Origin: Zeimonas sp.
Lineage (GTDB): Bacteria; Pseudomonadota; Gammaproteobacteria; Burkholderiales; Burkholderiaceae_E
NCBI GenBank assembly: GCA_035303885.1
Contig: DATGRE010000191.1
Span: forward strand, 1 to 45,821
Direction of reading: 5' to 3'
Length of the DNA stretch: 45,821 bases
The position numbers and the translations under genes are program-made. Shown here piece by piece: positions 29,364 to 45,598 of this stretch. Numbering within the stretch: position 1 is the first letter of the stretch; each line of letters starts with the position of its first letter. Below the pieces are notes generated by a model, which was not told where the DNA came from, ran no database searches, and saw only the letters and a program-made list of their open reading frames with translations.

Positions 29364-30809
29364 TCAATCGAACCAGACCGGCTTGCTCGCACCCATTGGC
29401 ATCGGTGGTCTGGCCCAGTACGCGATGGTCTCGCTGTATTGCACGAGTGGCCGTGGGTGACGCAGGACACCGAACACCGAGTCCGTTTCCTGAAATGCAC
29501 TTTCCGGGACCGAAGGCAAGTCCCGGATCCCCAGCCGACCCTCTGGCCACATCTCCTGCGGAAGACGTCCGAGCGACTGGACCCACATCGAGCTTTGCGT
29601 CAGCGAAGTCGAAACGTGATACGAGCCGCCCTCCTTGCTTCGGCGTAGCAGCGCAGCGACGACCCCTGCGGCGGCGAGATAGGCGGTGAGGTAGTCGTTC
29701 AACGTGAAAGTGGGGGCGAGTCTCGGCTCCTCCGGCGAACCTTCGTCGATTGCGAGACCCGATACGGCTTGCCCAAGCGGTTCGTACCCTCCGCGATCAG
29801 CCCACGGCCCCTCGTCTCCGTAGCAGCTCAACGAAACGTAGACGACGCCGGGGCAAAGGTCCGCCACTTCGCTGGGCGAGAACCCGCGTCTCGCGAGTGC
29901 CCCCGGACGCCACGACTGAATGAAGACGTCGGCATCGCGAATCAGCGCACGAAGCCGTTCGACGTCCGAAGGCAAGTCGAGGTCGATGAACGCGGTCCGC
30001 TTCCCGAAGCCTGTATCGACGTCGATCAGATGTCCATCGGGCTGGTGGGGCGCAGAGACGTGAAGTACCGAAGCGCCCTGCTCCGCCAGCACTCGGGAGG
30101 TGATCGGTCCCGCAAGCACGTGGGCCATGTCGACCACCCGCAAGCCGCTCAGCGGCCGATCGGCTCCCGGCGCGAATGGAACCGGCTCCGCATCGTTGAT
30201 CCTGGTGACCAGGACAGGCGGCCTGGCCGCGAGGAGACGCCCTTGTGGATGCAAGCGCCACTCTTCCTGCGTGCGTGCGATGCAACCGAACAGTCGAGCC
30301 TCGGCAAGCGCCTGCTCCAACTCGTCCGAGTTCCATTTCGCGACCGCATTGGCAACCGACTCGTGCCCGGTGGTCGCCCCCAGGAAGCGGTGCACGTCGA
30401 GACAGTGCTGGACATAGTTCGCGGTATAGAGCAGATAGAACCTTCGATCGTCCTTCGTCGCGAAGAAATTAGGTCCTTGCCCGTCCCAGCGCGTAAAGGG
30501 AAGAGGATGGCCGTTCTGCCGAATGTGAAGGAAAGTGCACAGCCCGGGATAAGCAGCGTTGCGGACATCGACGCAAGCACGCTGCTCGCGCCCGGTGCGC
30601 GTCTTCCAGATCTCGATGATGCCCAATGCTTGCGCAGCGATAGCGGCGGCACTCGCCGCGCCCAGGCGATGTCGGCTCGGAACCACCGGGTCGGCGCCTT
30701 CGAACGTCACGCACGAGGCATCCGCGTGGCCCAGCCCGACAAAATTTCGCGCCTCGTCGAAAGCCAGGCGAACGTGTCGGTCCTGATCCCCTCCGATTCC
30801 GCCCTCCAT
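29364..30809 (-). CDS. Class III (CaiB/BaiF) CoA-transferase, long form
   Basis: PLSGLRVVDMAHVLAGP, GKR, ADVFIQSWRPGAL, SCYGDEGPWADRGGY, LNDYLTAY; GGAGAG RBS before ATG 30809. Confidence 0.9.
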   Translation of the reverse strand: MEGGIGGDQDRHVRLAFDEARNFVGLGHADASCVTFEGADPVVPSRHRLGAASAAAIAAQALGIIEIWKTRTGREQRACVDVRNAAYPGLCTFLHIRQNGHPLPFTRWDGQGPNFFATKDDRRFYLLYTANYVQHCLDVHRFLGATTGHESVANAVAKWNSDELEQALAEARLFGCIARTQEEWRLHPQGRLLAARPPVLVTRINDAEPVPFAPGADRPLSGLRVVDMAHVLAGPITSRVLAEQGASVLHVSAPHQPDGHLIDVDTGFGKRTAFIDLDLPSDVERLRALIRDADVFIQSWRPGALARRGFSPSEVADLCPGVVYVSLSCYGDEGPWADRGGYEPLGQAVSGLAIDEGSPEEPRLAPTFTLNDYLTAYLAAAGVVAALLRRSKEGGSYHVSTSLTQSSMWVQSLGRLPQEMWPEGRLGIRDLPSVPESAFQETDSVFGVLRHPRPLVQYSETIAYWARPPMPMGASKPVWFD

Positions 30810-30837
30810 ACCGCACTCTCCGTACCAGTCGACGCAG

Positions 30838-31881
30838 TCAGCCAACCGGGGGGATCCCCACCTCATCGATCAACTTGCGATAGAGGGAGTATTCGCGGCG
30901 CATCAGCGCATCGAGTTCGTCGCCCGCGACGACGCCGGAAAGGCCGATCTTCTTCATGCGCTCGCGCCCCTCGTCGTCGGCCCGATAGGCGGCGTTCAGC
31001 GTCGAGATCAGCTGCTCTACGACCGGGCGCGGCGTCCCCGCCGGGGCGAACAAGCCGAAGGTCGAGCGTGGCGGCTCCCATCCCTGAACCCCCGCTTCCC
31101 TCAAGGTGGGTACTTCCGGCAACTCGTCCACACGTTCGGCACGAAGCACGGCAAGCCCTCGAAGCCGACCGTCACGAATCAGCGGCGCCGCCTGAGAGAT
31201 AGAGGCGAACAGACAGTCGACATGCCCGCCGAGCATGTCGGCGGTCGCCTGCGCCGAACTGCGGTAGGCGACATGACCCAGCTTCACACCGGTCTCGCGC
31301 ATGAACATCTCTGCGTTCATGTGAGGTGTCGAGCCGGTCCCCGCACTCGCAAAGGTGATCCGTCCAGGGCCTTCCTTGGCTGCGTCGATCAACTGCTGGA
31401 GAGTCTGATAAGGCGACTGTGAACTGACGACGAACACGGTGCCCGCAGAACCGAGGGACCAGACCGGAATGAAATCCTTGAGCACATCGTATTTCACCGA
31501 TTTGTACAGGAAACCGGTCGTCACCAGAGCACTCGTGAACTGGGTCAATAGGGTGTGGCCGTCGGCGGCTGCCCGCAGTACCGCAGCGGTCCCGGTCGTA
31601 CCGCCGCCTCCGGCGAGGTTCTCGACGACGACGGGCTGACCGAACCCCGCGTGCAGCCGCTCCGCCATGTACCGCCCCGCGATGTCGACGGGGGAACCAG
31701 CGCCGTACGGGCAGATGATCCTGATCGTTCGCGTCGGATATGCCGACTTCGCATACGCCAACCCGGTCCAAGCCGGAAGCGCAAAAGCAGGCATCGATCC
31801 GAGCACACGCAGCACTCTCCGTCGTTCCGCTCGGGTAGCAGGCCGTAGCGAGTGGTGCAGGCCATTGGTCGAGCAGCGCAT
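30838..31881 (-). CDS. Bug/TctC tripartite tricarboxylate transporter solute-binding protein
   Basis: Tat-like signal RRRVLR...AYA, YPTRTIRIICPYGAG, VENLAGGGG, ADGHTL, SAGTGSTPH, PEVPTLRE. Confidence 0.93.
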   Translation of the reverse strand: MRCSTNGLHHSLRPATRAERRRVLRVLGSMPAFALPAWTGLAYAKSAYPTRTIRIICPYGAGSPVDIAGRYMAERLHAGFGQPVVVENLAGGGGTTGTAAVLRAAADGHTLLTQFTSALVTTGFLYKSVKYDVLKDFIPVWSLGSAGTVFVVSSQSPYQTLQQLIDAAKEGPGRITFASAGTGSTPHMNAEMFMRETGVKLGHVAYRSSAQATADMLGGHVDCLFASISQAAPLIRDGRLRGLAVLRAERVDELPEVPTLREAGVQGWEPPRSTFGLFAPAGTPRPVVEQLISTLNAAYRADDEGRERMKKIGLSGVVAGDELDALMRREYSLYRKLIDEVGIPPVG

Positions 31882-31971
31882 GAGTCCCCCTCCTGTGTTC
31901 GCTTCGGTTGGCGTAACGGGGGGAGTTTGCTCGACGCTACCGAAAGCCGGAAGATGCAAAATTTACCCGAT

Positions 31972-31990
31972 CAATAGCCACTAGTTATCA
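31972..31990. promoter_or_regulatory. LysR-type T-N11-A box in the divergent bug/lysR promoter
   Basis: ATAG-CCACTAG-TTAT dyad in an AT-rich stretch just before the lysR ATG. Confidence 0.55.
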
Positions 31991-31996
31991 CATGCC

Positions 31997-32968
31997 ATGA
32001 AGCTCCACCAACTGCGCGACTTCGTCGCCGTGTCGCACGCTGGCGGAATTCGAGCGGCCGCGCGTGAGCTCGGACTGACTCAGCCATCACTCACCAAAAG
32101 CATCCGTCAGCTGGAGACATCGCTCGGCGTTCCGCTGTTCGAGCGCACCGGGCGCGGTCTGCATCGCACGGAATTCGGCGATGCACTGTTCGTTCGTGCG
32201 AGCGCCGTCCTGGCCGACCTGCAGCGCGCAACGGATGAGATCCGGCAACTCCGTGGCATCTGGCAGGGACGGGTCACGGTATCGATGAGCGGCACTAGCC
32301 TGCTCAATCTCCTACCGGGAGCACTCGAGGTGTTTCGACGTCGCCATCCCGATGTGCGCGTGCGCATCATCGAACGGCCACTCGACCAGGCACTCGAAGA
32401 GCTCCGCGGCGGCGTCCTCGACTTCGCCGTTCTTCCCGAGCCCCCAGCCACCATCCGGGACGAGTTTCGTTTCGATCCCCTACTGACCGACCGCTACGCC
32501 GTGGTGGGGCGAGCGGCGCACCCCTTGAGCAGCGCCACGTCGATCGTGGAGTTGCTCGACACGGAATGGGTCGTTACCCGCCAAGGTGGCGCAAGTGCCG
32601 CCGAGTTCGAGCGCTATTTCGCCGCGCTGCGGCTGACGGCTCCGAGTGTCTCGATCCAATGCGAAACCGTCCTCGGCGTTCTGTCCCTCCTCGCGCATAC
32701 CGATCTGCTAGCCTTGCTGCCGTCGCGCTGGCTGCATACCAGGATCACGCGCAATGTCTCGGCCGAGATCCATGTCGCCGAGCACGTCCAGACTACGCCT
32801 ATCGGCATCATTCAGCGCCGCTCGGCGCCCTTGTCCCCCGCCGCAGAAGCCTTCGCGGCCGCGCTCGTAGTGGAGTCCCGAGAAGTCGAGCGTGCATCCC
32901 CCGTCACGACTCCTCCTCGGCGAACGCCTCGTCGCGCTTCTTCGCCACCGCGGGCAGGAAGACGATGA
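31997..32968 (+). CDS. LysR-family transcriptional regulator
   Basis: MKLHQLRDF...AARELGLTQPSLTKSIRQLETSLGVPLFER. Confidence 0.96.
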   Translation: MKLHQLRDFVAVSHAGGIRAAARELGLTQPSLTKSIRQLETSLGVPLFERTGRGLHRTEFGDALFVRASAVLADLQRATDEIRQLRGIWQGRVTVSMSGTSLLNLLPGALEVFRRRHPDVRVRIIERPLDQALEELRGGVLDFAVLPEPPATIRDEFRFDPLLTDRYAVVGRAAHPLSSATSIVELLDTEWVVTRQGGASAAEFERYFAALRLTAPSVSIQCETVLGVLSLLAHTDLLALLPSRWLHTRITRNVSAEIHVAEHVQTTPIGIIQRRSAPLSPAAEAFAAALVVESREVERASPVTTPPRRTPRRASSPPRAGRR

Positions 32969-34415
32969 CGAGCAGCACGACCGCGATCGCCAGCAGCGTG
33001 GCCGACAGCGGGCGCGTGACGAACACCGACCAGTCGCCGCGCGAGATCGTCATCGCGCGGCGCAGGTACTCCTCCATCAGGCTGCCGAGCACCAGCCCGA
33101 GCAGCATCGGCGCCGGCTCGCAGTCGAGCTTGCGGAACAGGTAGCCGAGGATCGCGAACGGGATCGTCACGTAGACGTCGAAGACGTTGTTGTTGATCGA
33201 GTACGCGCCGACGCAGCAGAACAGCAGGATCGCCGGATACAGGATCCGGTACGGGACGGTGAGCAGCTTGATCCAGATGCCGATCAGCGGCAGGTTCAGC
33301 ACCACCAGCATCGCGTTGCCGATCCACATCGAGGTGATCAGGCCCCAGAACAGGCTGGGGTTGCTCGTCATCACCTGCGGGCCGGGCTGGATGTTGTGAA
33401 TCATCATCCCGGCGACCATCAGCGCCATCACCGCGTTGGTGGGAATGCCCAGCGTGAGCATCGGGATGAACGAGGTCTGCGCGCCCGCGTTGTTCGCCGC
33501 CTCCGGGCCGGCCACGCCTTCGATCGCGCCCTTGCCGAAGCGCTCGGGCGTGCGCGAGATCTTCTTCTCGATCGCGTAGGAGGTGAACGACGACAGCACC
33601 GCGCCGCCGCCGGGCAGGATCCCGAGGAACGAGCCGAGCGCCGTGCCGCGCACGATCGGCGCGAGCGACGCCTTGAGTTCGTCGCGGCTGGGCAGCAGAC
33701 GGCCGACCCGGCGGGTGAAGACCTCGCGATCCTCGCGATGCTCCAGGTTGGCGATGATCTCGCCGAAGCCGAACAGGCCCATCGCGACGGCGGCGAAGGA
33801 GACGCCGTCGGTCAACTCGGGGATCCCGAAGGAGAAGCGCGCGACCCCCGAGTTCACGTCGGTTCCGATCATGCCCACCAGCAGGCCGAGCACGACCATC
33901 GCCAGCGCCTTGACGATCGATCCGTGCGCGAGGACGACCGCGGCGATCAGGCCGAGCACCATCAGCGAGAAGTACTCGGCGGGCCCGAACTTGAAAGCGA
34001 TCTCGGCCAGCGGCGGGGCGAAGCCGGCGATGAGCAGCGTCGCGACGGTCCCCGCGAAGAACGAGCCGATCGCGGCGATCGACAGCGCCGGCCCCGGTCG
34101 CCCTTTGCGCGCCATCTGGTAGCCGTCGAGCGTGGTCACCACCGACGAGGTCTCGCCGGGCAGGTTCACCAGGATCGCCGTCGTCGATCCCCCGTACTGC
34201 GCGCCGTAGTAGATGCCGGCAAGCATGATGAGCGCCGTGGTCGGATCGCTCATCTGGTAGGTGATCGGCAGCAGCATCGCGATCGTCGCCAGCGGGCCGA
34301 GCCCGGGCAGCACGCCGATCAGCGTGCCGAGCAGCACGCCGACGAAGCACCAGAGGACGTTCTCGAGAGTGAGCGCGGTCGCGAAGCCCAGCGCCAGGTG
34401 CGAAAGCAGTTCCAT
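32904..34415 (-). CDS. tctA: Tripartite tricarboxylate transporter large permease TctA
   Basis: [38 protein letters not shown]. Confidence 0.96.
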
Positions 34416-34428
34416 CAGCGGATCAGGA

Positions 34429-34890
34429 TCAAGGCGAGAACAACGTCGGCCAGACGGGGAACTGCAGCTCGAGCCCCTTCACGAAGACCAGCCAGGACAG
34501 CACGAGCAGCACAACGATCTCGAGCAGCGTCTCCTTCCATCGGAACTCGTGGCTGGCGATGGCCGAGAGGCCAATCAACACGGCGACCGAAACGACCATG
34601 CCCAGGCGCGGCAGCAGCAGCGCGAACAGCGCAACCGACCCGAGGATCACGATCAGCGGGCGCCAGCCGATGCGCTCGACGCCCGTCTCGGGGTTGGTGC
34701 GCGCCGTGGACATCCAGATCGTCGCCACGCCGAGCAGCGCGAGGAGGACGCCGAGCATCATCGGGAAGAAGCCCGGCCCCATGCGGGCCGGCGTGCCGAG
34801 CTGGTACGCGGAGGAGAAGACGGCGAAGGCGCTCCCGAGGACGAGAAACAGGACTCCCGACCAGAAATCGCGATGGTTGCGGATGCGCAT
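34429..34890 (-). CDS. tctB: Tripartite tricarboxylate transporter small permease TctB
   Basis: GTPARMGPGFFP, four TM segments, adjacent to tctA. Confidence 0.93.
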   Translation of the reverse strand: MRIRNHRDFWSGVLFLVLGSAFAVFSSAYQLGTPARMGPGFFPMMLGVLLALLGVATIWMSTARTNPETGVERIGWRPLIVILGSVALFALLLPRLGMVVSVAVLIGLSAIASHEFRWKETLLEIVVLLVLSWLVFVKGLELQFPVWPTLFSP

Positions 34891-35045: not shown

Positions 35046-36266
35046 CTACCGCATCCGCCACAGCAAGGCGATTCCCAGCCCGGCGAACGCGGCGGCCACG
35101 CCGAACGTCGCCGCATAGCTTTGCAGCTGCGAGTAGATGGCCGCGAACAGCGACGGCCCGATCAGCACCCCGCCGAACGTGAAGAACAGCGCGCCGCCGG
35201 TCGCCGTGCTCGCCTCGCCCGCCGGCGCGAGCCGCGCCACCTCCGCCAGGAACACGCCGTTCCACCCGATCGCCGTCACCCCCATCGACACGAACACGGC
35301 GGCCGTGGCGAACGCGCTCCAGCGCTCGTCGACCTGCGTGGCCGCGAGCGTCGCGAGCAGCATCAACGCTCCGAGCACGAGCAGCGTCGTTCGACTTGCC
35401 CGCAACCGGTCGGCGATCCACCCCCAGGCGATGCGCCCGACGGCGCCGGAGAACTGCACTGCCGACAGCAGCACGCCCGCCTCGACCAGCGTGTAGCGCG
35501 CCTCCTGCACGAGAAACGTCACCGCGAAGGTCATCAGGCACAGCTGCACGCCGGCGAAGCACAGCGCCATCAGCGACAGATGGCGAAGGCCCCGGTGCGA
35601 CCACACCAGGACGATTCCGCTCAGCAGGCCCGCAGGCGAACCCGAAGCCTGCCGGGCATCCCGCCGCACGCGTCCGCTGCGGTCGCGCTCGGCCGCGCAC
35701 CGATCGTCGTCCCAGAGCGAGCGCACCGGCTGCAGCAGCGCGAGCATCGCGAGCGCGCAGACGAGGACGACGAGCAGCGCCGCGCGCCAGCCATAGGCGT
35801 GCGCGACCGGCGGCGCAACGAGCGCCGCGGCCATGCCGCCGAGCGGAACGCCCGTCTGCTTCAGCGAGAAGATCAGGTTGCGGCTCGACGCCGGGGTGAA
35901 GCGCGCCAGCAGATGCGCGCCCGCCGGATTCGACGACCCGTAGCCGAAGCCCAGCAGCATCGACGCGACGGCGAGCGCAGCCAGGTGCGGCACCGTCGCG
36001 AGCAGCATCGCGGCGGCGACGAGCGCGAGCGCGACTTGCGTCGTGCGGCAAGCACCCAGCCGCGCGACGACGTTGCCGCCCACCGCCGCGCTCGCCATCG
36101 CACCCGCGTAGACGATGCTCACCTGGTAGCCGATCGTCGACGCGTCGACCGCGAGCACCTGCGCGAGCTCGGGCGCGAGCACCGGCAGCGTCAGCGCGGC
36201 CATCGAGACGATCGTCTGCGCGACGAGCGTCGCGCCGACGACGATCGGCACGGGCGGAGTCTGCAT
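35046..36266 (-). CDS. MFS transporter
   Basis: 406 aa hydrophobic protein; SLKQTGVPLGG, GRIAWGWIADR, IGWNGV. Confidence 0.92.
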   Translation of the reverse strand: MQTPPVPIVVGATLVAQTIVSMAALTLPVLAPELAQVLAVDASTIGYQVSIVYAGAMASAAVGGNVVARLGACRTTQVALALVAAAMLLATVPHLAALAVASMLLGFGYGSSNPAGAHLLARFTPASSRNLIFSLKQTGVPLGGMAAALVAPPVAHAYGWRAALLVVLVCALAMLALLQPVRSLWDDDRCAAERDRSGRVRRDARQASGSPAGLLSGIVLVWSHRGLRHLSLMALCFAGVQLCLMTFAVTFLVQEARYTLVEAGVLLSAVQFSGAVGRIAWGWIADRLRASRTTLLVLGALMLLATLAATQVDERWSAFATAAVFVSMGVTAIGWNGVFLAEVARLAPAGEASTATGGALFFTFGGVLIGPSLFAAIYSQLQSYAATFGVAAAFAGLGIALLWRMR

Positions 36267-36271
36267 CGCCT

Positions 36272-37591
36272 TCAGCGCACGTTGCCGACGAGCATCAACG
36301 CCAGTTGCGGGAAGACTGCGACCAGCGCGAGTACCGCCAACATGATCAGCACGTAAGGCACGGCGCCCCGGATGATGCGCTCGAGCGGAACGTCGCGCAC
36401 GACGCCCTGCACGACGAACAGGTTCAGGCCGACCGGCGGCGTGATCAGCGCCATCTCCATGTTGATCGTCAGGATGATGCCAAACCAGATCAGGTCCCAG
36501 CCGAAGACCGAGACGATCGGGATCAGGATCGGCGCCGTGATCACGATGATCGACAGCGTCTCCATGAAGCAGCCGAGGAAGACCAGCAGCAGGTTGATCG
36601 CGATGAAGATCAGCCACGGCGCAACGTCGAGCTCGGCCACCGTGCGCGAGATGACCGGCGCGACCTGCGTCGTCGTCATCGCGTAGCCGAAGACCATCGC
36701 GCCGGCGATGATCATCAGCACCATCACGCTGCCGCGCGCCGCATCGTGCAGGATGACGAGCATCTTGCGAAGCGTGAGCTCGCGGTAGAGGACGCCCGAG
36801 AGCAGCAGGCTCGCCAACGTGCCGAGCGCGGCCGCTTCGGTGGGCGTGGCAAGCCCCTGGTAGATCGAGCCGAGGATGATCCAGATCAGCACCGCCATCG
36901 GCACCAGGTGCCGCAGCGCGGCGAGGCGCTCGCGCACGGTGGGCGCCGCCGCCATGGCCGCATGCCCGGCAACGGTGGCCGCACGGTGTGCGCGCAGCGC
37001 CGCGCGCACCTGGTACGCCATGAACGCGGCGGTCATGATCAACCCGGGGAGGATCCCGGCGATGAAGAGCTTGCCGATCGACTGCTCCGCGACGATGCCG
37101 TAGACGATCATCGGGATGCTCGGCGGAATCAGGATGCCGAGCGTGCCGCCGGCGGCCACCGCCCCGGTGGCGTCGCTGTCGCGATAGCCGAAGCGGCGCA
37201 TCTCGTCGACCGAGAAGCGGCCGATCGCTCCCGCGGTCGCGACGCTCGAGCCCGAGACCGCGGCCATCACCGCGCATGCGAGCGTCGTCGCGACCATCAG
37301 TCCGCCGGGCACGCCGTGCAGCAACGTCGCGAGCGACGCATACAGGCGCGACCCCATCCCCGACGCCGAGATGATCGCGCCCATCAGGATGAACAGCGGA
37401 ACCGCCGTCAGCGTGAAGCTCGTGATCGAGCCCCACAGCGTCGGCGCGATGAGGCCGAGCGCGTCGATGCCGCCACCCACCAGGAGCAGCGTGCCGATCG
37501 CGACACCGAAGAGGCTGAATGCAACGGGCACGCCGATCGCGAGGCACGCGATCAGCGCGGCGAACATCGCCAGACCGAGCCAGATCTCCAT
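36272..37591 (-). CDS. TRAP transporter large permease (DctM family)
   Basis: AVPLFILMG, SGSSVAT, GTLGILIPPSI, ATPTEAA, ITPPVGLNLFV. Confidence 0.96.
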   Translation of the reverse strand: MEIWLGLAMFAALIACLAIGVPVAFSLFGVAIGTLLLVGGGIDALGLIAPTLWGSITSFTLTAVPLFILMGAIISASGMGSRLYASLATLLHGVPGGLMVATTLACAVMAAVSGSSVATAGAIGRFSVDEMRRFGYRDSDATGAVAAGGTLGILIPPSIPMIVYGIVAEQSIGKLFIAGILPGLIMTAAFMAYQVRAALRAHRAATVAGHAAMAAAPTVRERLAALRHLVPMAVLIWIILGSIYQGLATPTEAAALGTLASLLLSGVLYRELTLRKMLVILHDAARGSVMVLMIIAGAMVFGYAMTTTQVAPVISRTVAELDVAPWLIFIAINLLLVFLGCFMETLSIIVITAPILIPIVSVFGWDLIWFGIILTINMEMALITPPVGLNLFVVQGVVRDVPLERIIRGAVPYVLIMLAVLALVAVFPQLALMLVGNVR

Positions 37592-37609
37592 TCGATTCGA
37601 AGGTCGGGT

Positions 37610-38137
37610 TCAGGCGCTGTCGCGCCTGCGGTTCACCATCTCCGCCAGATGCACGACGAGCAGCCAGAGCATGCCCGCGGCGAAGAACGAATAGGGAATC
37701 CACAGCGCGACCTGGAAGAGCCCCCAGGACGTCTCGCCGCTGTCGTAGGCGTCCCACCAGAACTGCGCACTGAGCCACGCGAGCAGCCCGACCACGACGA
37801 GCACGACGACGTCGGCGAGCCAGGCCAGCACGCGGCGAACGCCGGGGGAGACGCGCGTGACGACGAGATCGACGCCGACGTGCGCGCCTTCGGCCAGCGC
37901 ATAGGCCGCGCCGCCGAAGGCGATGAGGCCCATCAGGTATTCCGAGACGTCGTTGACCCAGCCGGTCGTCGACGCGAAGAAGGTGCGGGCGACGACCTCG
38001 TAGGTGACGAGCAGCGCGATCGCGAATGCGGCGACGCCGACCAGCAGCCCGGAGAATCGCGTGACCGCCGCGATCCACGCGAAGCCCGCCGGGGGGCGGC
38101 GCGCCGGCGCCGCCCCGTTGCCTTCGCGCGCGCTCAC
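37610..38137 (-). CDS. TRAP transporter small permease (DctQ family)
   Basis: YEVVART, WVNDVSEY, GAHVGVD; four TM segments. Confidence 0.93.
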   Translation of the reverse strand: MSAREGNGAAPARRPPAGFAWIAAVTRFSGLLVGVAAFAIALLVTYEVVARTFFASTTGWVNDVSEYLMGLIAFGGAAYALAEGAHVGVDLVVTRVSPGVRRVLAWLADVVVLVVVGLLAWLSAQFWWDAYDSGETSWGLFQVALWIPYSFFAAGMLWLLVVHLAEMVNRRRDSA

Positions 38138-39150
38138 CGGCCCGCGTCGACGCCGGCGTTCTTCAGCAGCTCCTCACCGCCGGGAACGTCGGCCTTGAAC
38201 TTCTCGAAGCTGTACTTGCGAAACCAGTCCTGCCACTTCTTCCACGACGCTTCGGTCATCTTCTCGACCTGGACGCCGTTCTTCGCGAACAGCCCGGCGA
38301 CGCGCCTGTCCTCGTTCTTCGCCCCTTCCAGCGCCGCCTGCTCGAGGCTCTCGCCGACCTCGACGAGGATCTTCTGCTGCTCGGGCGTCAGCTTGTTCCA
38401 CGTCTTCATGCTGATCGCGATCGGCTCGATCGTGAAGTAGACGCTGTAGTCCTCGGGCGAGTTGTAGAACTTCGCCACCTCGTACATGCGATACGCGCCG
38501 AAGGACCCCGACGACGTCCACATTCCGTCGAGCAGCCCGAGCTGCATCGCGTTGTAGTTCTCGGACGACGGCATCGAGACGGTGGTCGCGCCCGCCTGCT
38601 GCAACGCGTACTCCATGAACTTGCCGGCCGCGCGCATCTTCAATCCCGAGACGTCCTGCGGCTCGTGGATCGGCTTGCCCGTCGAGGCGACGCCGCCCGA
38701 GATCTGGATCCACGACAGCGTCTTGAAGCCGTACTCCTGCGCCTTCCGTTCGAGCTGCTTCCACGCCTCGGACTTGCGGAAGGCGAAGACGTCGTCGTGG
38801 CTGCTCCAGAGACCGGGCAGCAGCACCAGGTTCATCTGCGGGATCGCACCGGCGGCGTAGATGTACGGATAGATCGCGAGATCGACCGTGCCGTTGCGCA
38901 GCGCCGTATGTGTCGCGTTCGCCTTCACGAGCGACTGGGCCGGAAAGATCGAGATCTTGATCTCTCCGTTCGTGCGCTTCTCGACCTCCTGCGCGAACTT
39001 GATGCCGGTGGCGATGACGTAGTCGGACTCGTCCTGCGGCCACTGGTGCGCCATCTTCAGGTTCAGCGTCTGCGCGGCGGCGGCGCCACCGAGCGTGAGG
39101 GCCGCACCCGCAACCAGCGCGGTCCCGAACTTCGCGAACGTGGTTCTCAT
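38134..39150 (-). CDS. TRAP solute-binding protein (DctP family)
   Basis: Signal peptide, FAQEVEKRTNGEIKI, GLKMR (conserved carboxylate-binding Arg), YNAMQLGLLDG; GGAGG RBS. Confidence 0.95.
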   Translation of the reverse strand: MRTTFAKFGTALVAGAALTLGGAAAAQTLNLKMAHQWPQDESDYVIATGIKFAQEVEKRTNGEIKISIFPAQSLVKANATHTALRNGTVDLAIYPYIYAAGAIPQMNLVLLPGLWSSHDDVFAFRKSEAWKQLERKAQEYGFKTLSWIQISGGVASTGKPIHEPQDVSGLKMRAAGKFMEYALQQAGATTVSMPSSENYNAMQLGLLDGMWTSSGSFGAYRMYEVAKFYNSPEDYSVYFTIEPIAISMKTWNKLTPEQQKILVEVGESLEQAALEGAKNEDRRVAGLFAKNGVQVEKMTEASWKKWQDWFRKYSFEKFKADVPGGEELLKNAGVDAGR

Positions 39151-39178
39151 GGTTCCTCCTCTGCGGTTCCGCCGGTGT

Positions 39179-40081
39179 TCAGTTCCGGCGATCGGTGCCT
39201 CGCGACATCGTTGCGAGAATTTCTTCGTACAGCGCCGCCGGCTCGTCGTCGAAGCGCTCCTCGGGCCATTGCGCGAGCGTCGCCGCCAGCTTCCGGTACG
39301 CCAGCCGCTGCAACCGATAGCGGTTGAAGCGGCGCCGGCGTGCAGGCGCCGGGCGGCGTTCGAGGGCCTGGTGCAGCGCCTCGTCGATCCGCGCGTCGAG
39401 CTCGAGCAGGCCTTCGTCATCGTCCGCCTTCACGAGCACGATGTGCGGCACGGCGACGCCGCGACGCTGCGACAGCGTCGTCTTCAGCTCGAGCGCCGTC
39501 CGGCGGGCTCCGGCGAGATCGGCCTTGTTGATCACGATGAGGTCGGCGGTCTCGAGGATTCCGGCCTTCATCGCCTGGATCGAGTCGCCCAGGCCCGGCA
39601 TCAGCAGCAGCACCTCGACGTCGACGAGCTCGCGCACGCCGAACTCGGCCTGGCCCACGCCCACCGTCTCGACGACGATCTCGGCGAAGCCGAACGAATC
39701 GAGCGTCGAAAGGACCTCCGGAAGGTTGTCGCCGAGCCCGTCGCGCGTCTGGCCGCTCGGCATCGAACGCACGTACACGCGTGGATCCTCGGCGAGCGCC
39801 TCCATGCGGATGCGGTCGCCGAGCAGCGAGCCGGCGCTGTCCGGGCTCGTCGGGTCGATGGCGACGATCGCCAGCGGCGAGGCCTTCTCCACCCGCACGT
39901 GGGCGAGCCGTGCGATCAGCGAGCTCTTGCCGACGCCCGGCGCGCCGGTGATGCCGATGCGCGGCGCCGGTGGCCCGTCGTGGACCGGCTCGCGCAGCAG
40001 CTCGTCGACGTCCATTCGCGCGACGCGCGTGAGCGCGCGGCTCACGGCCCGCCGGTCGAAGGGCGAGGCCGACGACGTCAC
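39179..40081 (-). CDS. meaB: MeaB/ArgK G-protein chaperone for the B12 mutase
   Basis: GITGAPGVGKSS, AIDPTSP..GSLLGDRIRM, ETVGVGQ, GDSIQAMKAGILE, NKAD. Confidence 0.95.
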   Translation of the reverse strand: MTSSASPFDRRAVSRALTRVARMDVDELLREPVHDGPPAPRIGITGAPGVGKSSLIARLAHVRVEKASPLAIVAIDPTSPDSAGSLLGDRIRMEALAEDPRVYVRSMPSGQTRDGLGDNLPEVLSTLDSFGFAEIVVETVGVGQAEFGVRELVDVEVLLLMPGLGDSIQAMKAGILETADLIVINKADLAGARRTALELKTTLSQRRGVAVPHIVLVKADDDEGLLELDARIDEALHQALERRPAPARRRRFNRYRLQRLAYRKLAATLAQWPEERFDDEPAALYEEILATMSRGTDRRN

Positions 40082-41202
40082 CCGGTCTTCCCCAGCAGGG
40101 CAGGCCCGTGCTCGCCGAGCAGCGGCGGCGCACGAAAATCGTCCTGCGCGTCGGAGAACTTCACCGGGTTGCCGACGACGCGAAGCATCTCTCCGTCGAG
40201 AGGAATCTCCGCAACCATCCCTCGCGCCGCCGTCTGCTCGCTCGCCAGCGCCGTCTCGAGCGTCTCGACACCGGCGGCGACGATGCCCAGCGGCGCGAGC
40301 CGCGCGACCCATCGCTCGGTCGTTTCGGTCGCGAGGACCTCGCCGATCGAGTGCAGGACGAGCTCGCGATTCTCGCGCCGCGCGACCATCGTCGCGTAGC
40401 GCTCGTCGTCGATCCACTCGGGGCGCCCGATCTCGCGGCAGAACGTGCGCCAGAAATCGTCGTGCGTGATGAACAACGTCAGCCAGCCGTCGGCCGTACG
40501 GAAGATCTGCGCCGGGACAATGTACGGATGCGCCGACGCCGGATAGCGCTCGGCACGCTCGCCGGCGTTCAACCATGCGCCCGCGAGATAGTTCAGTTGC
40601 GAGAGCATGACGTCGTACATCGCGATGTCGACCTGGCCGCCCTCGCCCTGCACGAGCTTCGCCAGCAAGCCCACCGCTCCCATGATGCCGGCGGAGTTGT
40701 CCACCGCCGAGTACCCGGTCTTCGTCGGCGGCCCGGACGGATCGCCGGTCAGCGCCATGACGCCGGTCAACGCCTGGATCACGTAGTCGTAGGCGGGCCG
40801 CTCGGCGAAGGGACTGTCCAGCCCGTAGCCGGTGAGCGCGACGCAGACGATCTTCGGATTGAACGCCTTGAGCCGCTCGTAGGTGAGGCCGAGCTTGCGG
40901 ATCGCCTTGGGACGCAGGTTCGTGACAAGGCCGTGCGCGTCGCGCACCAGCACGCCGAGCTGCGCGCGGCCTTCGTCCGATGCGAGGTCGAGCACGACGC
41001 TGCGCTTGCCGCGGTTCAGGCTCGCGAAATACGCGTTGTGAGGCCCGACCTTGTGCGGGCTGATGCTGCGCGCGATGTCCCCGGCCGGCGGCTCGACCTT
41101 GATCACGTCGGCACCCAGGTCGGCAAGCAGCATCCCGCAGTACGGGCCCATCAGCATGTGCCCGACCTCGATGATGCGCTTGCCGCGCAGCGGCAGAGTC
41201 AC
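40078..41202 (-). CDS. Class III (CaiB/BaiF) CoA-transferase
   Basis: LADLGADVIKVEPP.GD, NRGKRS, AYDYVIQA, catalytic Asp region SAVDNSAG, PPLLGEH. Confidence 0.95.
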   Translation of the reverse strand: MTLPLRGKRIIEVGHMLMGPYCGMLLADLGADVIKVEPPAGDIARSISPHKVGPHNAYFASLNRGKRSVVLDLASDEGRAQLGVLVRDAHGLVTNLRPKAIRKLGLTYERLKAFNPKIVCVALTGYGLDSPFAERPAYDYVIQALTGVMALTGDPSGPPTKTGYSAVDNSAGIMGAVGLLAKLVQGEGGQVDIAMYDVMLSQLNYLAGAWLNAGERAERYPASAHPYIVPAQIFRTADGWLTLFITHDDFWRTFCREIGRPEWIDDERYATMVARRENRELVLHSIGEVLATETTERWVARLAPLGIVAAGVETLETALASEQTAARGMVAEIPLDGEMLRVVGNPVKFSDAQDDFRAPPLLGEHGPALLGKTG

Positions 41203-41615
41203 GACAGCATCCTCGCGATCGTCGCGATGACGTCGGCGAGCGGGATCTCGCTCGTGAACACGCCGCGCACGCCCCGTTCGCGCAGTCTCTCCTGGTCGGG
41301 CGCGGGAATCGTGCCGCCCACGAACACCGGGATGTCGTCCGCCTGCAGCGAGCGCAACTGCTCGAGCGTATCGTCCACCAGCTCGTTGTGGCTGCCGGAG
41401 AGGATCGACAGCCCGACGGCGTCGACGTCCTCGTCGACGGCGACGCGCGCGATGTAGCCGGGCGTCTTGCGCAGCCCCGTGTAGATGACGTCGGCGCCGG
41501 CGTCGCGCAACGCGAGCGCGACGACCTTCGCGCCGACGTCGTGGCCGTCCAGGCCGGGCTTGGCGACGAGAATGCGCTTGCCGCGCAGCGGCGCCGTTTC
41601 GGTGGTTGGCTTCAT
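41199..41615 (-). CDS. Acyl-CoA mutase small (cobalamin-binding) subunit
   Basis: DxHxxG motif GLDGHDVGAK, GLSILSG, VFVGGTIP. Confidence 0.96.
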   Translation of the reverse strand: MKPTTETAPLRGKRILVAKPGLDGHDVGAKVVALALRDAGADVIYTGLRKTPGYIARVAVDEDVDAVGLSILSGSHNELVDDTLEQLRSLQADDIPVFVGGTIPAPDQERLRERGVRGVFTSEIPLADVIATIARMLS

Positions 41616-43237
41616 AGTCGCACCGGTTCCTCGAACTCGCCCCACTGCTTCTTCAGCCGCGCGACCATCTCGCCCACCGTGGCGTAGGCGTGGCAGCACT
41701 CGATCAGATAGGGCATCAGGTTCTCGTCGTCGACGGCGGCCGCCTGCTCGAGCCGGTCGAGCGCGCGCTCGACCTCGGCGGCATCGCGCCGGTCGCGGAT
41801 CGCATCGAATTTCTCGAGCACGCGCCGGCTCGCCTGCGGGTCGACGCTGAACACCTCCTCGGGCGCCGCCGTCTGGTCTTCGTGGCGAAAGCAGTTCAAC
41901 CCGACGACGGGCAGCTTGCCGCTGTCGATCTGCCGCTTGCGCTCGTGTGCGCGATGCGCGATGCGCAGCTGCAGCCAGCCGTCCTCGATCGCCTTCACCG
42001 CGCCGCCGTACGCCTCGACCTCGGCCATCAGCGATTCGATCCGCTTCTCCATCTCGTCGGTGAGGTGCTCGGTGAAGTAGCCGCCGCCCAGCGGATCGAC
42101 CGTGCGCGCGATTCCGCTCTCGTAGGCGACGATCTGCTGCGTGCGCAGCGCGAGCTCCGCGGAGAATTCGGTGGGAATCTGGAACGGCTCGTCGAGCGCG
42201 CAGGTGAAGATCGACTGCGCGCCGCTCAGCACGGCCGCCATCGTCTCGATCGCCACCCGCACGACGTTGTTGTACGGCTGCGGGGCGACCAGCGACGAGC
42301 CGCCGCAGACGACGCCGAAGCGGAACATCTGCGCCTTCGGATCGGTGACCCCGTAGCGCTCCTTCAGCAGCCGCGCCCAGATCCGGCGGCCGGCCCGGAA
42401 CTTCGCGACCTCCTCGAAGAGGTCCATGTGCACGTAGAAGAAGAACGACAGGCGCTTGGCGAAGCGGTCCGCGTCGCCGCCGCGTCGGATCAGCTCGTCG
42501 ACGTAGGCCAGCCCGTTGGCCAGCGTGTACGCCATCTCCTCGGCCGCCGTGCAGCCGGCATCGCGCATGTGGGCGCCGGCGATCGAGATCGTGTTGAAGC
42601 GCGGCGTCTCGCGGTTGCCGAACAGGATCGTGTCGGAGATCAGCCGCATCGAGGGGCGCACCGGAAAGATCCACGTTCCGCGCGCGACGTATTCCTTCAG
42701 GATGTCGTTCTGGATCGTCCCCGTGAGCTTCTCGCGCGGCACGCCGGTGCGGTCGGCGCACGCGATGTACATCGCGTAGAGGATCGCCGCGGTGCCGTTG
42801 ATCGTGAACGACGTCGAGATGCGCGACAGATCGATCCCGCGGAACAGGATCTCCATCTCGGAGAGATTCGACAGCGACACGCCGACCTTGCCGATCTCGG
42901 GACGCGCCATCGGGTCGGTGGGGTCGAGCCCGCACTGCGTCGGCAGGTCGAGCGCGACCGACAGCCCCGTCTGGCCACGCTCGAGCAGGAAGCGGTAGCG
43001 CTCGTTCGATTCCTCGGCGGTGCCGAAGCCCGAATACTGGCGCATCGTCCAGAGCCGGCCGCGGTAGCCGTCGGGAAAGATGCCGCGCGTGAACGGGAAC
43101 TCGCCCGGCCGGCCCGGATCCTGGAAGGGGAAGTTCTGCGGGTCGACGACGACCGGCACCTCGATGCCGGAGCGCACGGCGGTGCCGACGCTCGGCACGA
43201 CCGGTCGCGTTTCCGCTTCGGTGCTTCGATGGTTCAT
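41612..43237 (-). CDS. AdoCbl-dependent acyl-CoA mutase large (substrate-binding) subunit with atypical active site
   Basis: PGEFPFTRG, WTMRQYSGF, GLSVALDLPTQ, GTIQNDILKEYVAR, EEVAKFRAGRRIW, DPLGG. Confidence 0.96.
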   Translation of the reverse strand: MNHRSTEAETRPVVPSVGTAVRSGIEVPVVVDPQNFPFQDPGRPGEFPFTRGIFPDGYRGRLWTMRQYSGFGTAEESNERYRFLLERGQTGLSVALDLPTQCGLDPTDPMARPEIGKVGVSLSNLSEMEILFRGIDLSRISTSFTINGTAAILYAMYIACADRTGVPREKLTGTIQNDILKEYVARGTWIFPVRPSMRLISDTILFGNRETPRFNTISIAGAHMRDAGCTAAEEMAYTLANGLAYVDELIRRGGDADRFAKRLSFFFYVHMDLFEEVAKFRAGRRIWARLLKERYGVTDPKAQMFRFGVVCGGSSLVAPQPYNNVVRVAIETMAAVLSGAQSIFTCALDEPFQIPTEFSAELALRTQQIVAYESGIARTVDPLGGGYFTEHLTDEMEKRIESLMAEVEAYGGAVKAIEDGWLQLRIAHRAHERKRQIDSGKLPVVGLNCFRHEDQTAAPEEVFSVDPQASRRVLEKFDAIRDRRDAAEVERALDRLEQAAAVDDENLMPYLIECCHAYATVGEMVARLKKQWGEFEEPVRL

Positions 43238-44019
43238 GCTGATCCTCTGCTTCGCGACAGGAAGCGGTCGCTCGCCTGCCAGTGATCGGGGTGGATCCAG
43301 GTGGCGACGAAGGCCTCGCGCTCGCGCTGCTCGCGCTGCGCCCGCGTGTGCATGAGGCGATCACCCAGCGCGATCGCCTTGAACGCACGCAGCACCTGCG
43401 GCGCCTGCGCGCGCATCGGCGCGAGGAATCGCTCGACGCAGGCGTCGAGCGATTCGCCGTCGGCGGCGACGTCGTCGACCAGTCCGATCGCCTGCGCCTT
43501 CTCGGCCGGCATCGTCTCGGCGCCGACCAGGATCGAGAGCGCGCGCCGCCCGCCGACGAGCGCGACGAGATCCGCCCCGCCCCCGAAGCCCGTGCAGATG
43601 TTCAGGCGCCCCTGCACGAAGCCGATCGCCGCGTGCCGGGCCGCGACGCGGAAATCGCAGGCGACGGCGAGCTCGGCGCCTCCGCCCAGCGCGACGCCGT
43701 TCAGCGCGGCGACGACCGGCAGCGGGAACTCGCGCACCGCGCGCAGCGCCTCGTTCGCGTACGACCAGAGCCGCTCGGCGTCGTCGGTGCTGCGCAGCTT
43801 GTCGAACTCCTTCAGGTCACCGCCGGCAGCGAAGCTCTTCTCGCCCGCGCCGGTGACGACGGCCGCGCGCAGCCCGCGATCGTCGGCCGATTCGGTGAAC
43901 GCGCGGCGCAGCTCGCCGAGCACCTCGGTGCTCAGCGGGTTGCGCTGCGCCGGCCGGTCGATCGTCACGCGCAGGACGTCGTCGAGACGTTCGACCCTCA
44001 GGTACCGGTATTCGCTCAT
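43234..44019 (-). CDS. Crotonase-superfamily protein, probably an acyl-malonyl-CoA decarboxylase rather than a hydratase
   Basis: FAAGGDL, ALGGGAELAVACDFR; the second hydratase Glu is replaced by Gln (GFVQ). Confidence 0.88.
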   Translation of the reverse strand: MSEYRYLRVERLDDVLRVTIDRPAQRNPLSTEVLGELRRAFTESADDRGLRAAVVTGAGEKSFAAGGDLKEFDKLRSTDDAERLWSYANEALRAVREFPLPVVAALNGVALGGGAELAVACDFRVAARHAAIGFVQGRLNICTGFGGGADLVALVGGRRALSILVGAETMPAEKAQAIGLVDDVAADGESLDACVERFLAPMRAQAPQVLRAFKAIALGDRLMHTRAQREQREREAFVATWIHPDHWQASDRFLSRSRGSA

Positions 44020-44759
44020 TGCCGGAAGACCTCCTCGATTCGTCGGCGCGCACCGACGAGACGCGCCGCCAGTTCGTCGATGCGCTTCTCCATCCGGTGC
44101 GACGGACCGGCCACCGCGAGCCCGAAGACCTCGTCGCGGATCGACAGCGCGACGGCGAGCGCGGTGACGTCCTCGACGTTCTCGCCACGGGTCATGAACC
44201 AGCCGCGCTGCCGGCTTGCCTCGAGATCGGCGCGCAGCCGCTTCGCATCGACGATCGTGCGCCCGGTGACGGCGTCCAGCGGATGCGCACCGAGCCAGTC
44301 GGCGAGCGCGTCGTCGGACAGCGCGCCGAGCATCACCTTGCCGATCGAGCTCGAATGCAGCGGCTTGTATTCGCCGGGCTTCGCGGTGTAGCGCACGGTG
44401 TGCGGCCCTTCGACGACGTCGAGATAGAGGACCGCCTCGCCCTGCCGCTTGCCCAGGATCACGGTCTCGCGCGTCTCGTCGCGCAGACCCTGCAGCTGGG
44501 GCTCGATCCGCTCGAGGAACGGATCGTTGCGCACGACGCTCTGCGCGAGATCGAGCAGGCGCCGCGTCGGATAGAAGTCCTTGCGCCGGCTCACCGCGTA
44601 GAGGTAGCCGCGCCCGACGAGGGTCCGCACCAGACCGTGACAGCTGCTCACGGGAACGTTCATGCGCTGCGCGAGCTCGCTCAGCACGAGCGGCTTGCCA
44701 CTCGCCTCGAAGGCTTCGAACAGGTCGAGGGTGCGTTCGGCGGACGGTACAGGAGGCAT
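44016..44759 (-). CDS. IclR-family transcriptional regulator
   Basis: SAERTLDLFEAF HTH, LRDETRETVILG, PLHSSSIGKVML, LAVAGPSHR. Confidence 0.95.
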   Translation of the reverse strand: MPPVPSAERTLDLFEAFEASGKPLVLSELAQRMNVPVSSCHGLVRTLVGRGYLYAVSRRKDFYPTRRLLDLAQSVVRNDPFLERIEPQLQGLRDETRETVILGKRQGEAVLYLDVVEGPHTVRYTAKPGEYKPLHSSSIGKVMLGALSDDALADWLGAHPLDAVTGRTIVDAKRLRADLEASRQRGWFMTRGENVEDVTALAVALSIRDEVFGLAVAGPSHRMEKRIDELAARLVGARRRIEEVFRQ

Positions 44760-44768
44760 CGATTCTAT

Positions 44769-44795
44769 TTTTCAGCCGGCTGAAAACTTTTTCAG
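44769..44795. promoter_or_regulatory. Palindromic operator upstream of iclR
   Basis: Perfect 18-bp palindrome TTTTCAGCCGGCTGAAAA (44769-44786) plus a third TTTTCAG half-site (44789-44795). Confidence 0.75.
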
Positions 44796-44807
44796 ATAGC
44801 TATTACG

Positions 44808-44835
44808 ATTGTACGCAAGGCGACGAAACGCGCAA
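44808..44835 (-). promoter_or_regulatory. Putative sigma-70 promoter of the iclR-mutase operon
   Basis: Minus strand TTGCGC-N16-TACAAT, directly upstream of the operator. Confidence 0.5.
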
Positions 44836-44989: not shown

Positions 44990-45598
44990 TCAGAGCCGGT
45001 CGGCGTACTCGCGAAGAAACGTCAGCGTGCGCCGCGGCGAGAACGACGGCAGCGCGCATCCGGGCGCGAGAATGAAGCCTTCGCGCCCGGCCTGCGCAAC
45101 CGCATCGTCGATCTGATGCGCGAGCTTCGGCAGCGACAGGTCGGGAAACGCGCTTTCGTCGATGCCGCCCATCAGGCAGGCATCGAAGCGCCGGCGTAAC
45201 TCGGCGAGCGTCGGGTTGTCGGGCGAACGGTCCGACACGCTGAGCGACTCGCAGACGGTCTCGATCGCGCGCAGCGGCTCCGCGCGATGGCGCCACAGGT
45301 TCTCCTGCTGGTCGCGGCCGATGTTGCGCACGATCGACTGGTACGGATCGAAGCCGGTCTCGAGCAACGGGAACTCGGGGCCCATCGCGACGCGCAGCCG
45401 GTGCAGGCAGTCGAGCTGCTGCGCGAACGCCGGATGATCGAGCGGCACGACCTCGAACGCCCGCAGCGACGACGCCTCCTCGACGTCGCGCAACCCTTCG
45501 GGCACCGGGTAGCGATAGTCGGACATGACCTTGGCGAGATCCCAGCGATAGGTCGTCAGGAAGCGTTCGTGCAGGCGCGCCGTCTCCTCGCCCGCCAC
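44990..45598 (-). pseudogene. Truncated, internally deleted uroporphyrinogen decarboxylase (URO-D/MtaA)-family gene
   Basis: WDLAKVM, ETGFDP, CLMGGID, FILAPGC are family-like motifs, but the ORF is only about 202 aa. The N-terminus and the central barrel segment appear to be missing. Confidence 0.6.

Follow-up and report, generated by a model that had tools for sequence, protein, structure and literature searches.

The window analysed here, positions 1 to 45,821 of contig DATGRE010000191.1 from a Zeimonas sp. genome (GCA_035303885.1; 45,821 nt), carries a cassette of ten intact open reading frames, all on the minus strand, organized around a split B12-dependent acyl-CoA mutase. An IclR-family regulator (44016..44759, 247 aa, PF09339 and PF01614) comes first, followed by a crotonase-fold enzyme (43234..44019, 261 aa, PF00378) predicted from its residues and ESM Atlas cluster to be an (alkyl)malonyl-CoA decarboxylase, the large mutase subunit (41612..43237, 541 aa, PF01642), the cobalamin-binding small subunit (41199..41615, 138 aa, PF02310, above the TIGR00640 cut-off), a class III CoA-transferase (40078..41202, 374 aa, PF02515, below all NCBIfam equivalog cut-offs) and a MeaB-type GTPase chaperone (39179..40081, 300 aa, PF03308, 33% identical to ArgK). 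Behind them lie the solute-binding protein DctP (38134..39150), the small permease DctQ (37610..38137, PF04290) and the large permease DctM (36272..37591, PF06808, above the TIGR00786 cut-off) of a tripartite ATP-independent periplasmic (TRAP) transporter, and an accessory transporter of the major facilitator superfamily (MFS; 35046..36266, PF07690). From iclR to meaB, neighbouring genes overlap by 4 nt at each of the five junctions (iclR/ech, ech/mutL, mutL/mutS, mutS/coaT and coaT/meaB), an arrangement kept in relatives at 32 of 37, 44 of 62, 53 of 67, 59 of 67 and 42 of 50 junctions, respectively; further downstream the spacing is 28 nt for meaB-dctP, -4 nt for dctP/dctQ, 18 nt for dctQ-dctM and 5 nt for dctM-MFS. 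This layout had been read correctly in an initial annotation made from the DNA letters, as re-reading of frames, gaps and repeat confirmed, and Pfam likewise finds neither an epimerase nor a CoA ligase among the ten genes.

Nine nucleotides separate the iclR start from an upstream perfect 18-nt palindrome (44769..44786, a 9+9 inverted repeat). It is the likely IclR site, at which the regulator would repress the operon: its core, TTCR-N5/6-YGAA, precedes iclR in 36 of the 48 relatives with sufficient sequence, and none of the control stretches taken from within the mutase gene has it. As a loose pattern, TTCR-N5/6-YGAA occurs 11 times across the whole window. A tentative sigma-70-type promoter (TTGCGC-16 nt-TACAAT, 44808..44835, minus strand) was placed by eye; it lies under the threshold of the promoter scan, which called no site there, and TACAAT is found at the equivalent place in loci L002, L003, L004 and L009. 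A PDB search with IclR returned no close solved relative (best E 1e-15) and no ligand clue. In four RNA-labelled contig sets the operon and its flanks are covered alike, a comparison that includes no silent control.

Mutase loci were collected from a species-level genome set (39 loci, 36 at 72-92% identity), from metagenomes (42 loci, 39 at at least 72% identity) and from plasmids (7 records at 72-78% identity among 434 with any match). The 80 loci analysed comprise 36 from genomes, 39 from metagenomes, 4 from plasmids and 1 from a sample of the order; six distant loci were excluded, and the set is partly redundant, some loci being the same or near-identical DNA. Over three proteobacterial classes a core of crotonase, split mutase, class III CoA-transferase and MeaB recurs, mostly with IclR. 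The CoA-transferase was called in 69 loci; the counts are 62 for the crotonase, 53 for iclR and 52 for meaB, the missed genes being mostly due to contig ends or gene-caller failures, as in a low-GC Marinobacter locus.

The mutase and its pocket

The large subunit has the MM_CoA_mutase barrel, and with a B12-binding subunit carrying DxHxxG and a MeaB partner it belongs to the B12 acyl-CoA mutase family; its model superposes on 2-hydroxyisobutyryl-CoA mutase (HCM) and methylmalonyl-CoA mutase (MCM) with TM 0.93-0.94, and the nearest solved structure is 4R3U (HCM). With residue numbering checked against 1REQ, and counting only loci that cover the position, the carboxylate clamp is retained throughout (Y89 in 75 of 75, R207 in 76 of 76), as are H244 (79 of 79), E370 (78 of 78) and F287. 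Because Y89, R207, H244 and E370 are kept, a dicarboxylate monoester and radical chemistry would fit this enzyme. The pocket, in turn, is uniformly altered, with Y243A in 79 of 79 loci, H328G and Q330V each in 78 of 78, and N366C in 71 or N366A in 7 of 78; the loci further carry S241A, E247D, G289Y, T331C and H364F. Y243, H328 and N366 reportedly line the methyl pocket (Padovani and Banerjee 2006; Erb 2008), around the substrate's methyl carbon. Several of these residues also contact the adenosyl group. In the parts available to us, PMC2847961, PMC11599936 and PMC4441004 give no roles for pocket residues. Relative to MCM, five pocket positions lose 208 Å3 of side-chain volume (-208 Å3), compared with -94 for sequences of the ethylmalonyl-CoA mutase (ECM) type and -152 for those of the IaaH type. 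The pocket is thus probably larger than that of ECM, to an uncertain extent, which supports the initial suggestion of a substrate larger than methylmalonyl-CoA.

The phylogeny and neighbourhood survey proposed in the initial annotation places the mutase outside MCM, ECM, isobutyryl-CoA mutase (ICM)/IcmF, HCM, pivalyl-CoA mutase (PCM) and IaaH. In a quick IQ-TREE run with 85 rows, the proteobacterial cassette mutases form one clade (support 100) with an actinobacterial pair as sister (support 99), nested in a wider group with remodelled pockets that includes the IaaH type (42 rows, support 97) and stands apart from MCM/ECM, HCM, PCM and IcmF. Some of the individual changes are shared, H328G being common to ECM-type sequences and N366C to the IaaH type, while Y243 is also lost in Xaut_5043. 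The combination, as far as sequence can tell, is unlike every characterised type compared here. The MCM clamp is present, yet Y243, H328, Q330 and N366 are replaced by A, G, V and C, the clade is separate from ScpA-type mutases and the protein scores under the NF006944 cut-off. ECM (Ecm/MeaA), represented by Xanthobacter and Vannielia sequences that we assume to be of this type from their motif, shares Y89, R207 and H328G, but is only 36-39% identical, keeps Y243 and Q330, has P366 in place of C366 and groups with MCM; no Ccr scores above cut-off in the window's genome. PCM (Xaut_5043, presumably the pivalyl-CoA mutase of Kitanishi 2015) and HCM (4R3U) resemble the cassette in their split architecture with a MeaB of their own, and PCM, which acts on a quaternary carbon, has likewise replaced Y243; however, neither has the Y89/R207 clamp (L/N and I/Q in its place), and both use CoA ligases. 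The MatBQ/ActD hexylmalonyl-CoA mutases are described, in the portion of PMC5719088 at hand, as split enzymes proposed to interconvert alkylmalonyl- and alkylsuccinyl-CoA; they are biosynthetic, working with CCR and an epimerase, and are likened here by description, not by sequence.

The window's genome encodes four additional acyl-CoA mutases, of HCM, PCM, IcmF and IaaH type (contigs C299, C5, C350 and C65, the IaaH-type gene lying on C299), and a PduO adenosyltransferase on contig C39. Since the IaaH-type gene sits in an iaa-like cluster of its own, where hydantoinase B, acyl-CoA dehydrogenase and xanthine-dehydrogenase-like genes lie on either side of it, the operon is not iaa. The iaa pathway of Aromatoleum aromaticum, according to the accessible part of PMC8360864, uses the CoA-transferase IaaL, the benzylmalonyl-CoA mutase IaaGH and the decarboxylating dehydrogenase IaaF, and so resembles the cassette in having a CoA-transferase and a split mutase followed by decarboxylation of a substituted succinate, a step that is predicted for the cassette. 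The IaaH-type copy of this genome also keeps Y89/R207 and has N366C. In contrast, the cassette mutase has another pocket, falls in a separate clade and is only 46% identical, the reference being this context-assigned IaaH, not the A. aromaticum sequence; a crotonase stands where iaa has a flavin dehydrogenase, and the cassette contains no indole-oxidising genes.

PCM-type genes were also considered as a sign of a quaternary-carbon theme among the hosts. Of 36 host genomes, 6 have them, against 11 of 400 genomes in the sample of the order (G361, among these 11, is unpublished), but the IaaH-type control shows an equal enrichment, with 11 of 36 against 9 of 400. The idea was rejected; the co-occurrence is uninformative because the hosts are simply related and rich in B12 mutases. 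In four of five genomes the PCM-type gene and the cassette are on different contigs, and the fifth, G432, has frameshifted matches. A pivalyl-CoA-mutase-type gene does adjoin the cassette in two Comamonadaceae-like loci (L046:1-2190 and, as a remnant, L104:6502-6909), which probably represent one event. Two other split mutases came to light: a very divergent one with its own MeaB about 9 kb upstream of the cassette (L004:3-1119), and one coupled to carboxyltransferase-like and amidohydrolase-like genes (L056:159-4553; Y89/R207 kept, H328F, Q330G, N366A). Among 150 cluster representatives (P0241-P0390) there are dozens of distinct pocket signatures unlike any characterised mutase, which implies many undiscovered specificities.

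Partner enzymes, neighbours and spread of the cassette

In the crotonase, E116, Q136, W241, H246 and W247 are invariant in 36 homologues, while the second glutamate of canonical hydratases is replaced by G, A or another residue in 36 of 36 aligned sequences. The top ESM Atlas cluster (0.97, 217 of 256 features) bears the automatic name 'Ethylmalonyl-CoA decarboxylase', and the next two are generic. ECHDC1, an ethylmalonyl-CoA decarboxylase with a repair role in eukaryotes, shares the crotonase fold, the resemblance here resting on that automatic cluster name and not on a direct sequence comparison. By fold search, decarboxylases and hydratases could not be told apart. Altogether, a malonyl-CoA-type decarboxylase appears the likeliest role, ahead of a hydratase, in line with the initial prediction. 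The nearest solved relatives of the CoA-transferase are the dicarboxylate-using Frc/YfdE/SUGCT group; its Atlas search gave no ligand clue, and look-ups of cluster names returned generic labels only.

The initial annotation had compared the operon with E. coli scpA-argK-scpB-scpC, with which it shares the four functions (mutase, GTPase chaperone, crotonase-fold enzyme and CoA-transferase) and an operon without an epimerase. This parallel holds as a functional analogy but not as homology: the E. coli mutase is fused, whereas that of the cassette is split (44% identity) and its pocket remodelled, the crotonase is only 23% identical to ScpB, and the class III transferase gives no significant alignment with ScpC. 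In its predicted working the cassette resembles the IaaL-IaaGH-IaaF segment and, by analogy, E. coli scp, while on present comparisons it falls outside each characterised mutase type tested.

The DctP protein has 4MCO as its best PDB match (E 3.5e-68; next 6e-24), a structure that contains malonate according to the part of PMC4086125 available. It belongs to the same clade as the 4MCO-type malonate TRAP binding proteins at 38% identity, as with a relative in a malonate decarboxylase (mdc) operon, and has RAAGK in place of their RGGSR motif. This kinship would suggest a short dicarboxylate, with a malonate among the options. The TRAP and MFS genes are exchangeable add-ons: over the 80 loci, this DctP occurs in 18, TctC in 13, TAXI in 4, a malonate-type DctP in 2 and ABC systems in others, and the MFS is of this type in 9 and of another type in 6, which leaves the earlier suggestion that it exports a monoacid unsupported.

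Whereas the operon is self-contained in this genome, as first described, several relatives carry extra upstream enzymes. In L092, a solute-binding protein, a CMD-family gene, an aldehyde dehydrogenase (ALDH), a beta-hydroxyacid dehydrogenase and a fused hydantoinase/oxoprolinase of the ATP-dependent lactamase family form one run before the crotonase, with gaps of 9-45 nt around the dehydrogenase, ALDH and lactamase-family gene. In L104, an insertion of genes for a binding protein, a 2-oxoglutarate-Fe(II) oxygenase, an ALDH and a short-chain dehydrogenase/reductase (SDR) parts mutS from the transferase gene, and the same set lies just downstream of the cassette in Diaphorobacter. On a Marinobacter plasmid, the same ALDH type (62-66% identity), the beta-hydroxyacid dehydrogenase (52%) and a gene of the lactonase family are found at a distance of 6-11 kb, with insertion sequence (IS) elements in between. 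In L093, isovaleryl-CoA dehydrogenase (IVD) and the beta subunit of methylcrotonyl-CoA carboxylase (MCC) follow meaB after about 170 nt, in 1 of 80 loci and possibly by chance. Crotonase, mutase and CoA-transferase stay together as far as an actinobacterial sister locus (39%, 58% and 53% identity); in Streptomyces the orthologues lie among P450, ferredoxin, CoA ligase, SDR, luciferase-like monooxygenase (LLM) oxidoreductase, thiolase and glyoxalase-family genes, a setting that we take as typical of lipid or terpenoid breakdown. An actinobacterial sister cluster (L049:582-20621) contains a P450, ferredoxin, an LLM oxidoreductase, an amidohydrolase, three CoA ligases and SDRs, with no MeaB seen in its 21 kb.

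The cassette is a patchy, mobile accessory element. When the order was sampled evenly, 2 of 401 genomes had the orthologue, the window's genome counted, and its carriers are soil, sludge and marine bacteria. On the Marinobacter plasmid the five core genes and an adenosyltransferase are flanked by IS elements, and transposases lie near the Sulfitobacter and Xanthobacter copies. Carriers available in culture (Paraburkholderia caribensis MBA4, Xanthobacter autotrophicus ATCC 700552, Sulfitobacter dubius DSM 109990 and Diaphorobacter sp. HDW4B) would allow a direct experimental test. A literature search, to which most subscription papers including the main JBC ones were closed, returned no study of this cassette; Jost et al. 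2015 reportedly classified uncharacterised mutases and may already list the group.

A predicted route for substituted succinates

From the genes present and their order, their conservation, the residues of the pocket and the phylogeny, all of which are observed, we propose, with a probability of roughly 0.6, that the enzymes act in series on a substituted succinate, each reaction being predicted. The acid would be imported and activated by the class III CoA-transferase, and the B12 mutase, its cofactor probably loaded and protected by MeaB, would rearrange the substituted succinyl-CoA to a substituted malonyl-CoA. Decarboxylation by the crotonase would then pull the rearrangement forward and yield an acyl-CoA usable by general metabolism. 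We prefer the order transferase, mutase, decarboxylase because no other puts all three enzymes to successive use and ends in an irreversible step. The extended loci favour a succinate made upstream, since opening of a five-membered lactone or lactam, or hydroxylation of a methyl group, followed by two oxidations, would yield one. The candidate new pathway of the initial annotation is supported as an uncharacterised one. To it the present analysis adds that the mutase is distinct from the IaaH of the same genome, that the crotonase is a candidate decarboxylase and that accessory genes lie upstream in some loci, and it puts a name to a possible substrate.

The substrate would be a succinate with a bulky or double substituent on one carbon. 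Our lead, held tentatively and carrying about half of the weight of this interpretation, is a 2,2-dialkylsuccinate such as 2,2-dimethylsuccinate, which would pass through 2,2-dimethylsuccinyl-CoA and isopropylmalonyl-CoA to isovaleryl-CoA and the leucine (Liu) pathway. Mono-alkyl succinyl-CoAs have a B12-free exit by dehydrogenation, established for methylsuccinyl-CoA, which 2,2-dialkyl ones lack; because a quaternary carbon cannot be dehydrogenated, a mutase would be needed and a dedicated dehydrogenase would not. If the radical-bearing carbon has two substituents, each would require a cavity of its own, which H328G and Y243A match, and isovaleryl-CoA fits as product since IVD and MCC-beta are encoded elsewhere in the window's genome. 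Mono-substituted isopropyl, tert-butyl or cyclohexyl succinates, or 2,3-dialkylsuccinates, would serve as alternatives within the same route. A wider view, likewise tentative, is that of a quaternary-carbon dicarboxylate route whose isopropylmalonyl-CoA mutase, with a natural Tyr243-to-Ala cavity, takes 2,2-dimethylsuccinate to isovaleryl-CoA. The route would have been carved from a P450-rich cluster for lipid degradation in Actinobacteria and then have travelled through Proteobacteria as a mobile cassette. The substrate would then be debris of gem-dimethyl terpenoids and lactones, and spiro acids such as gabapentin diacid might be handled too.

Few acyl-CoA mutase specificities are known, each a carbon-skeleton rearrangement that is hard by chemistry, and we know of no enzyme yet assigned to the breakdown of bulky branched succinates, 2,2-dimethylsuccinate being our best guess. 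Replacement of Tyr243 reportedly cripples engineered MCM, and a clade that keeps the acid clamp but naturally replaces this residue would reveal how the radical is kept under control when the pocket is wider. If gem-dialkyl succinates are indeed handled, the cassette would supply a missing step in quaternary-carbon mineralisation and a biocatalyst for branched acids.

Several points weigh against this interpretation. Counted over ten positions of the pocket, the net change in volume shrinks to -73 Å3, as G289Y and H364F may backfill the cavity. The basis of the decarboxylase call is an automatically given cluster name together with an absent residue, the crotonase model is closer to hydratases (LiuC, Z 32.2) than to ScpB or CarB (Z 27.0), and its identity to ScpB is low. 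The (S) epimer is the one that ECHDC1 prefers, whereas mutases produce (R), and an epimerase is absent. Accessory genes occur in few and partly related loci (lactamase family in 6 of 80, ALDH in 4 of 80, IVD in 1 of 80) and are of common types. A DctP of the malonate-binding clade argues for a malonate, and L035 and L118 recruit a closer malonate-type DctP (54% for L035). Finally, substrate and reactions alike are predictions from sequence.

The strongest competing explanation, which we consider unlikely, is that dimethyl-, ethylmethyl- or hydroxy-methyl-malonate is imported, activated and rearranged to a succinyl-type CoA ester, the crotonase acting later as a dehydratase or lyase or clearing an unusable epimer. 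The closest solved relative of DctP binds malonate, related DctPs occur in mdc operons, the malonate clade was recruited a second time, and the mutase equilibrium lies on the succinyl side; dimethylmalonate could moreover arise from hydroxypivalate through the beta-hydroxyacid dehydrogenase and ALDH. However, a malonate would make the mutase superfluous if the crotonase is a decarboxylase, five-membered rings suit the lactamase and lactonase neighbours, H328G suggests a substituent on the radical-bearing carbon, and the window's DctP is distant from the malonate proteins, with RAAGK for RGGSR.

Less probable still is a futile or detoxifying decarboxylation cycle as with ScpC, in which the transferase moves CoA from the product to a new substrate and the monoacid is exported by the MFS or freed by a thioesterase. 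The core without a dehydrogenase, the analogy to scpA-argK-scpB-scpC and hot-dog thioesterases adjacent to the cassette in 8 of 80 loci would suit such a cycle, but the transferase is not of ScpC type, neither MFS type is frequent, and a regulator with high-affinity importers suggests carbon use. We give little credence to a stand-alone IaaL/IaaGH-like module turning phenylsuccinate-type acids into 3-arylpropionyl-CoA by non-oxidative decarboxylation: the shared remodelled-pocket group, N366C, lactamase-family neighbours as in iaa and a gross pocket volume that is big enough speak for it, yet the two mutases are not sisters in the tree, differ at residues 243, 287, 328 and 330 besides their low identity, and the cassette lacks IaaF or IaaIJK partners. 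That the mutase is an MCM or ECM, housekeeping or degenerate, which serves propionate or acetate metabolism is highly improbable: Y89/R207 are kept, automatic annotations read methylmalonyl-CoA mutase and no canonical MCM is among the five PF01642 matches of the window's genome (93% complete), but separate canonical MCMs in 3 of 5 host genomes tested show that the cassette mutase is not the housekeeping enzyme, its clade is separate, its pocket changes are invariant, its distribution in the order is patchy, and neither Ccr, in the window's genome, nor methylmalonyl-CoA epimerase, in 6 of 6 host genomes, scores above cut-off.

Following the cassette, positions 29364-34890 of the window carry tctB-tctA, a LysR gene, a tctC and another class III CoA-transferase-like gene, a long one of 500 aa; these genes are not conserved with the cassette. 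Upstream of iclR lies a uroporphyrinogen-decarboxylase-like frame (44990-45598, minus strand) of 202 aa, against 314 aa for its homologue in L002, and hence probably truncated.

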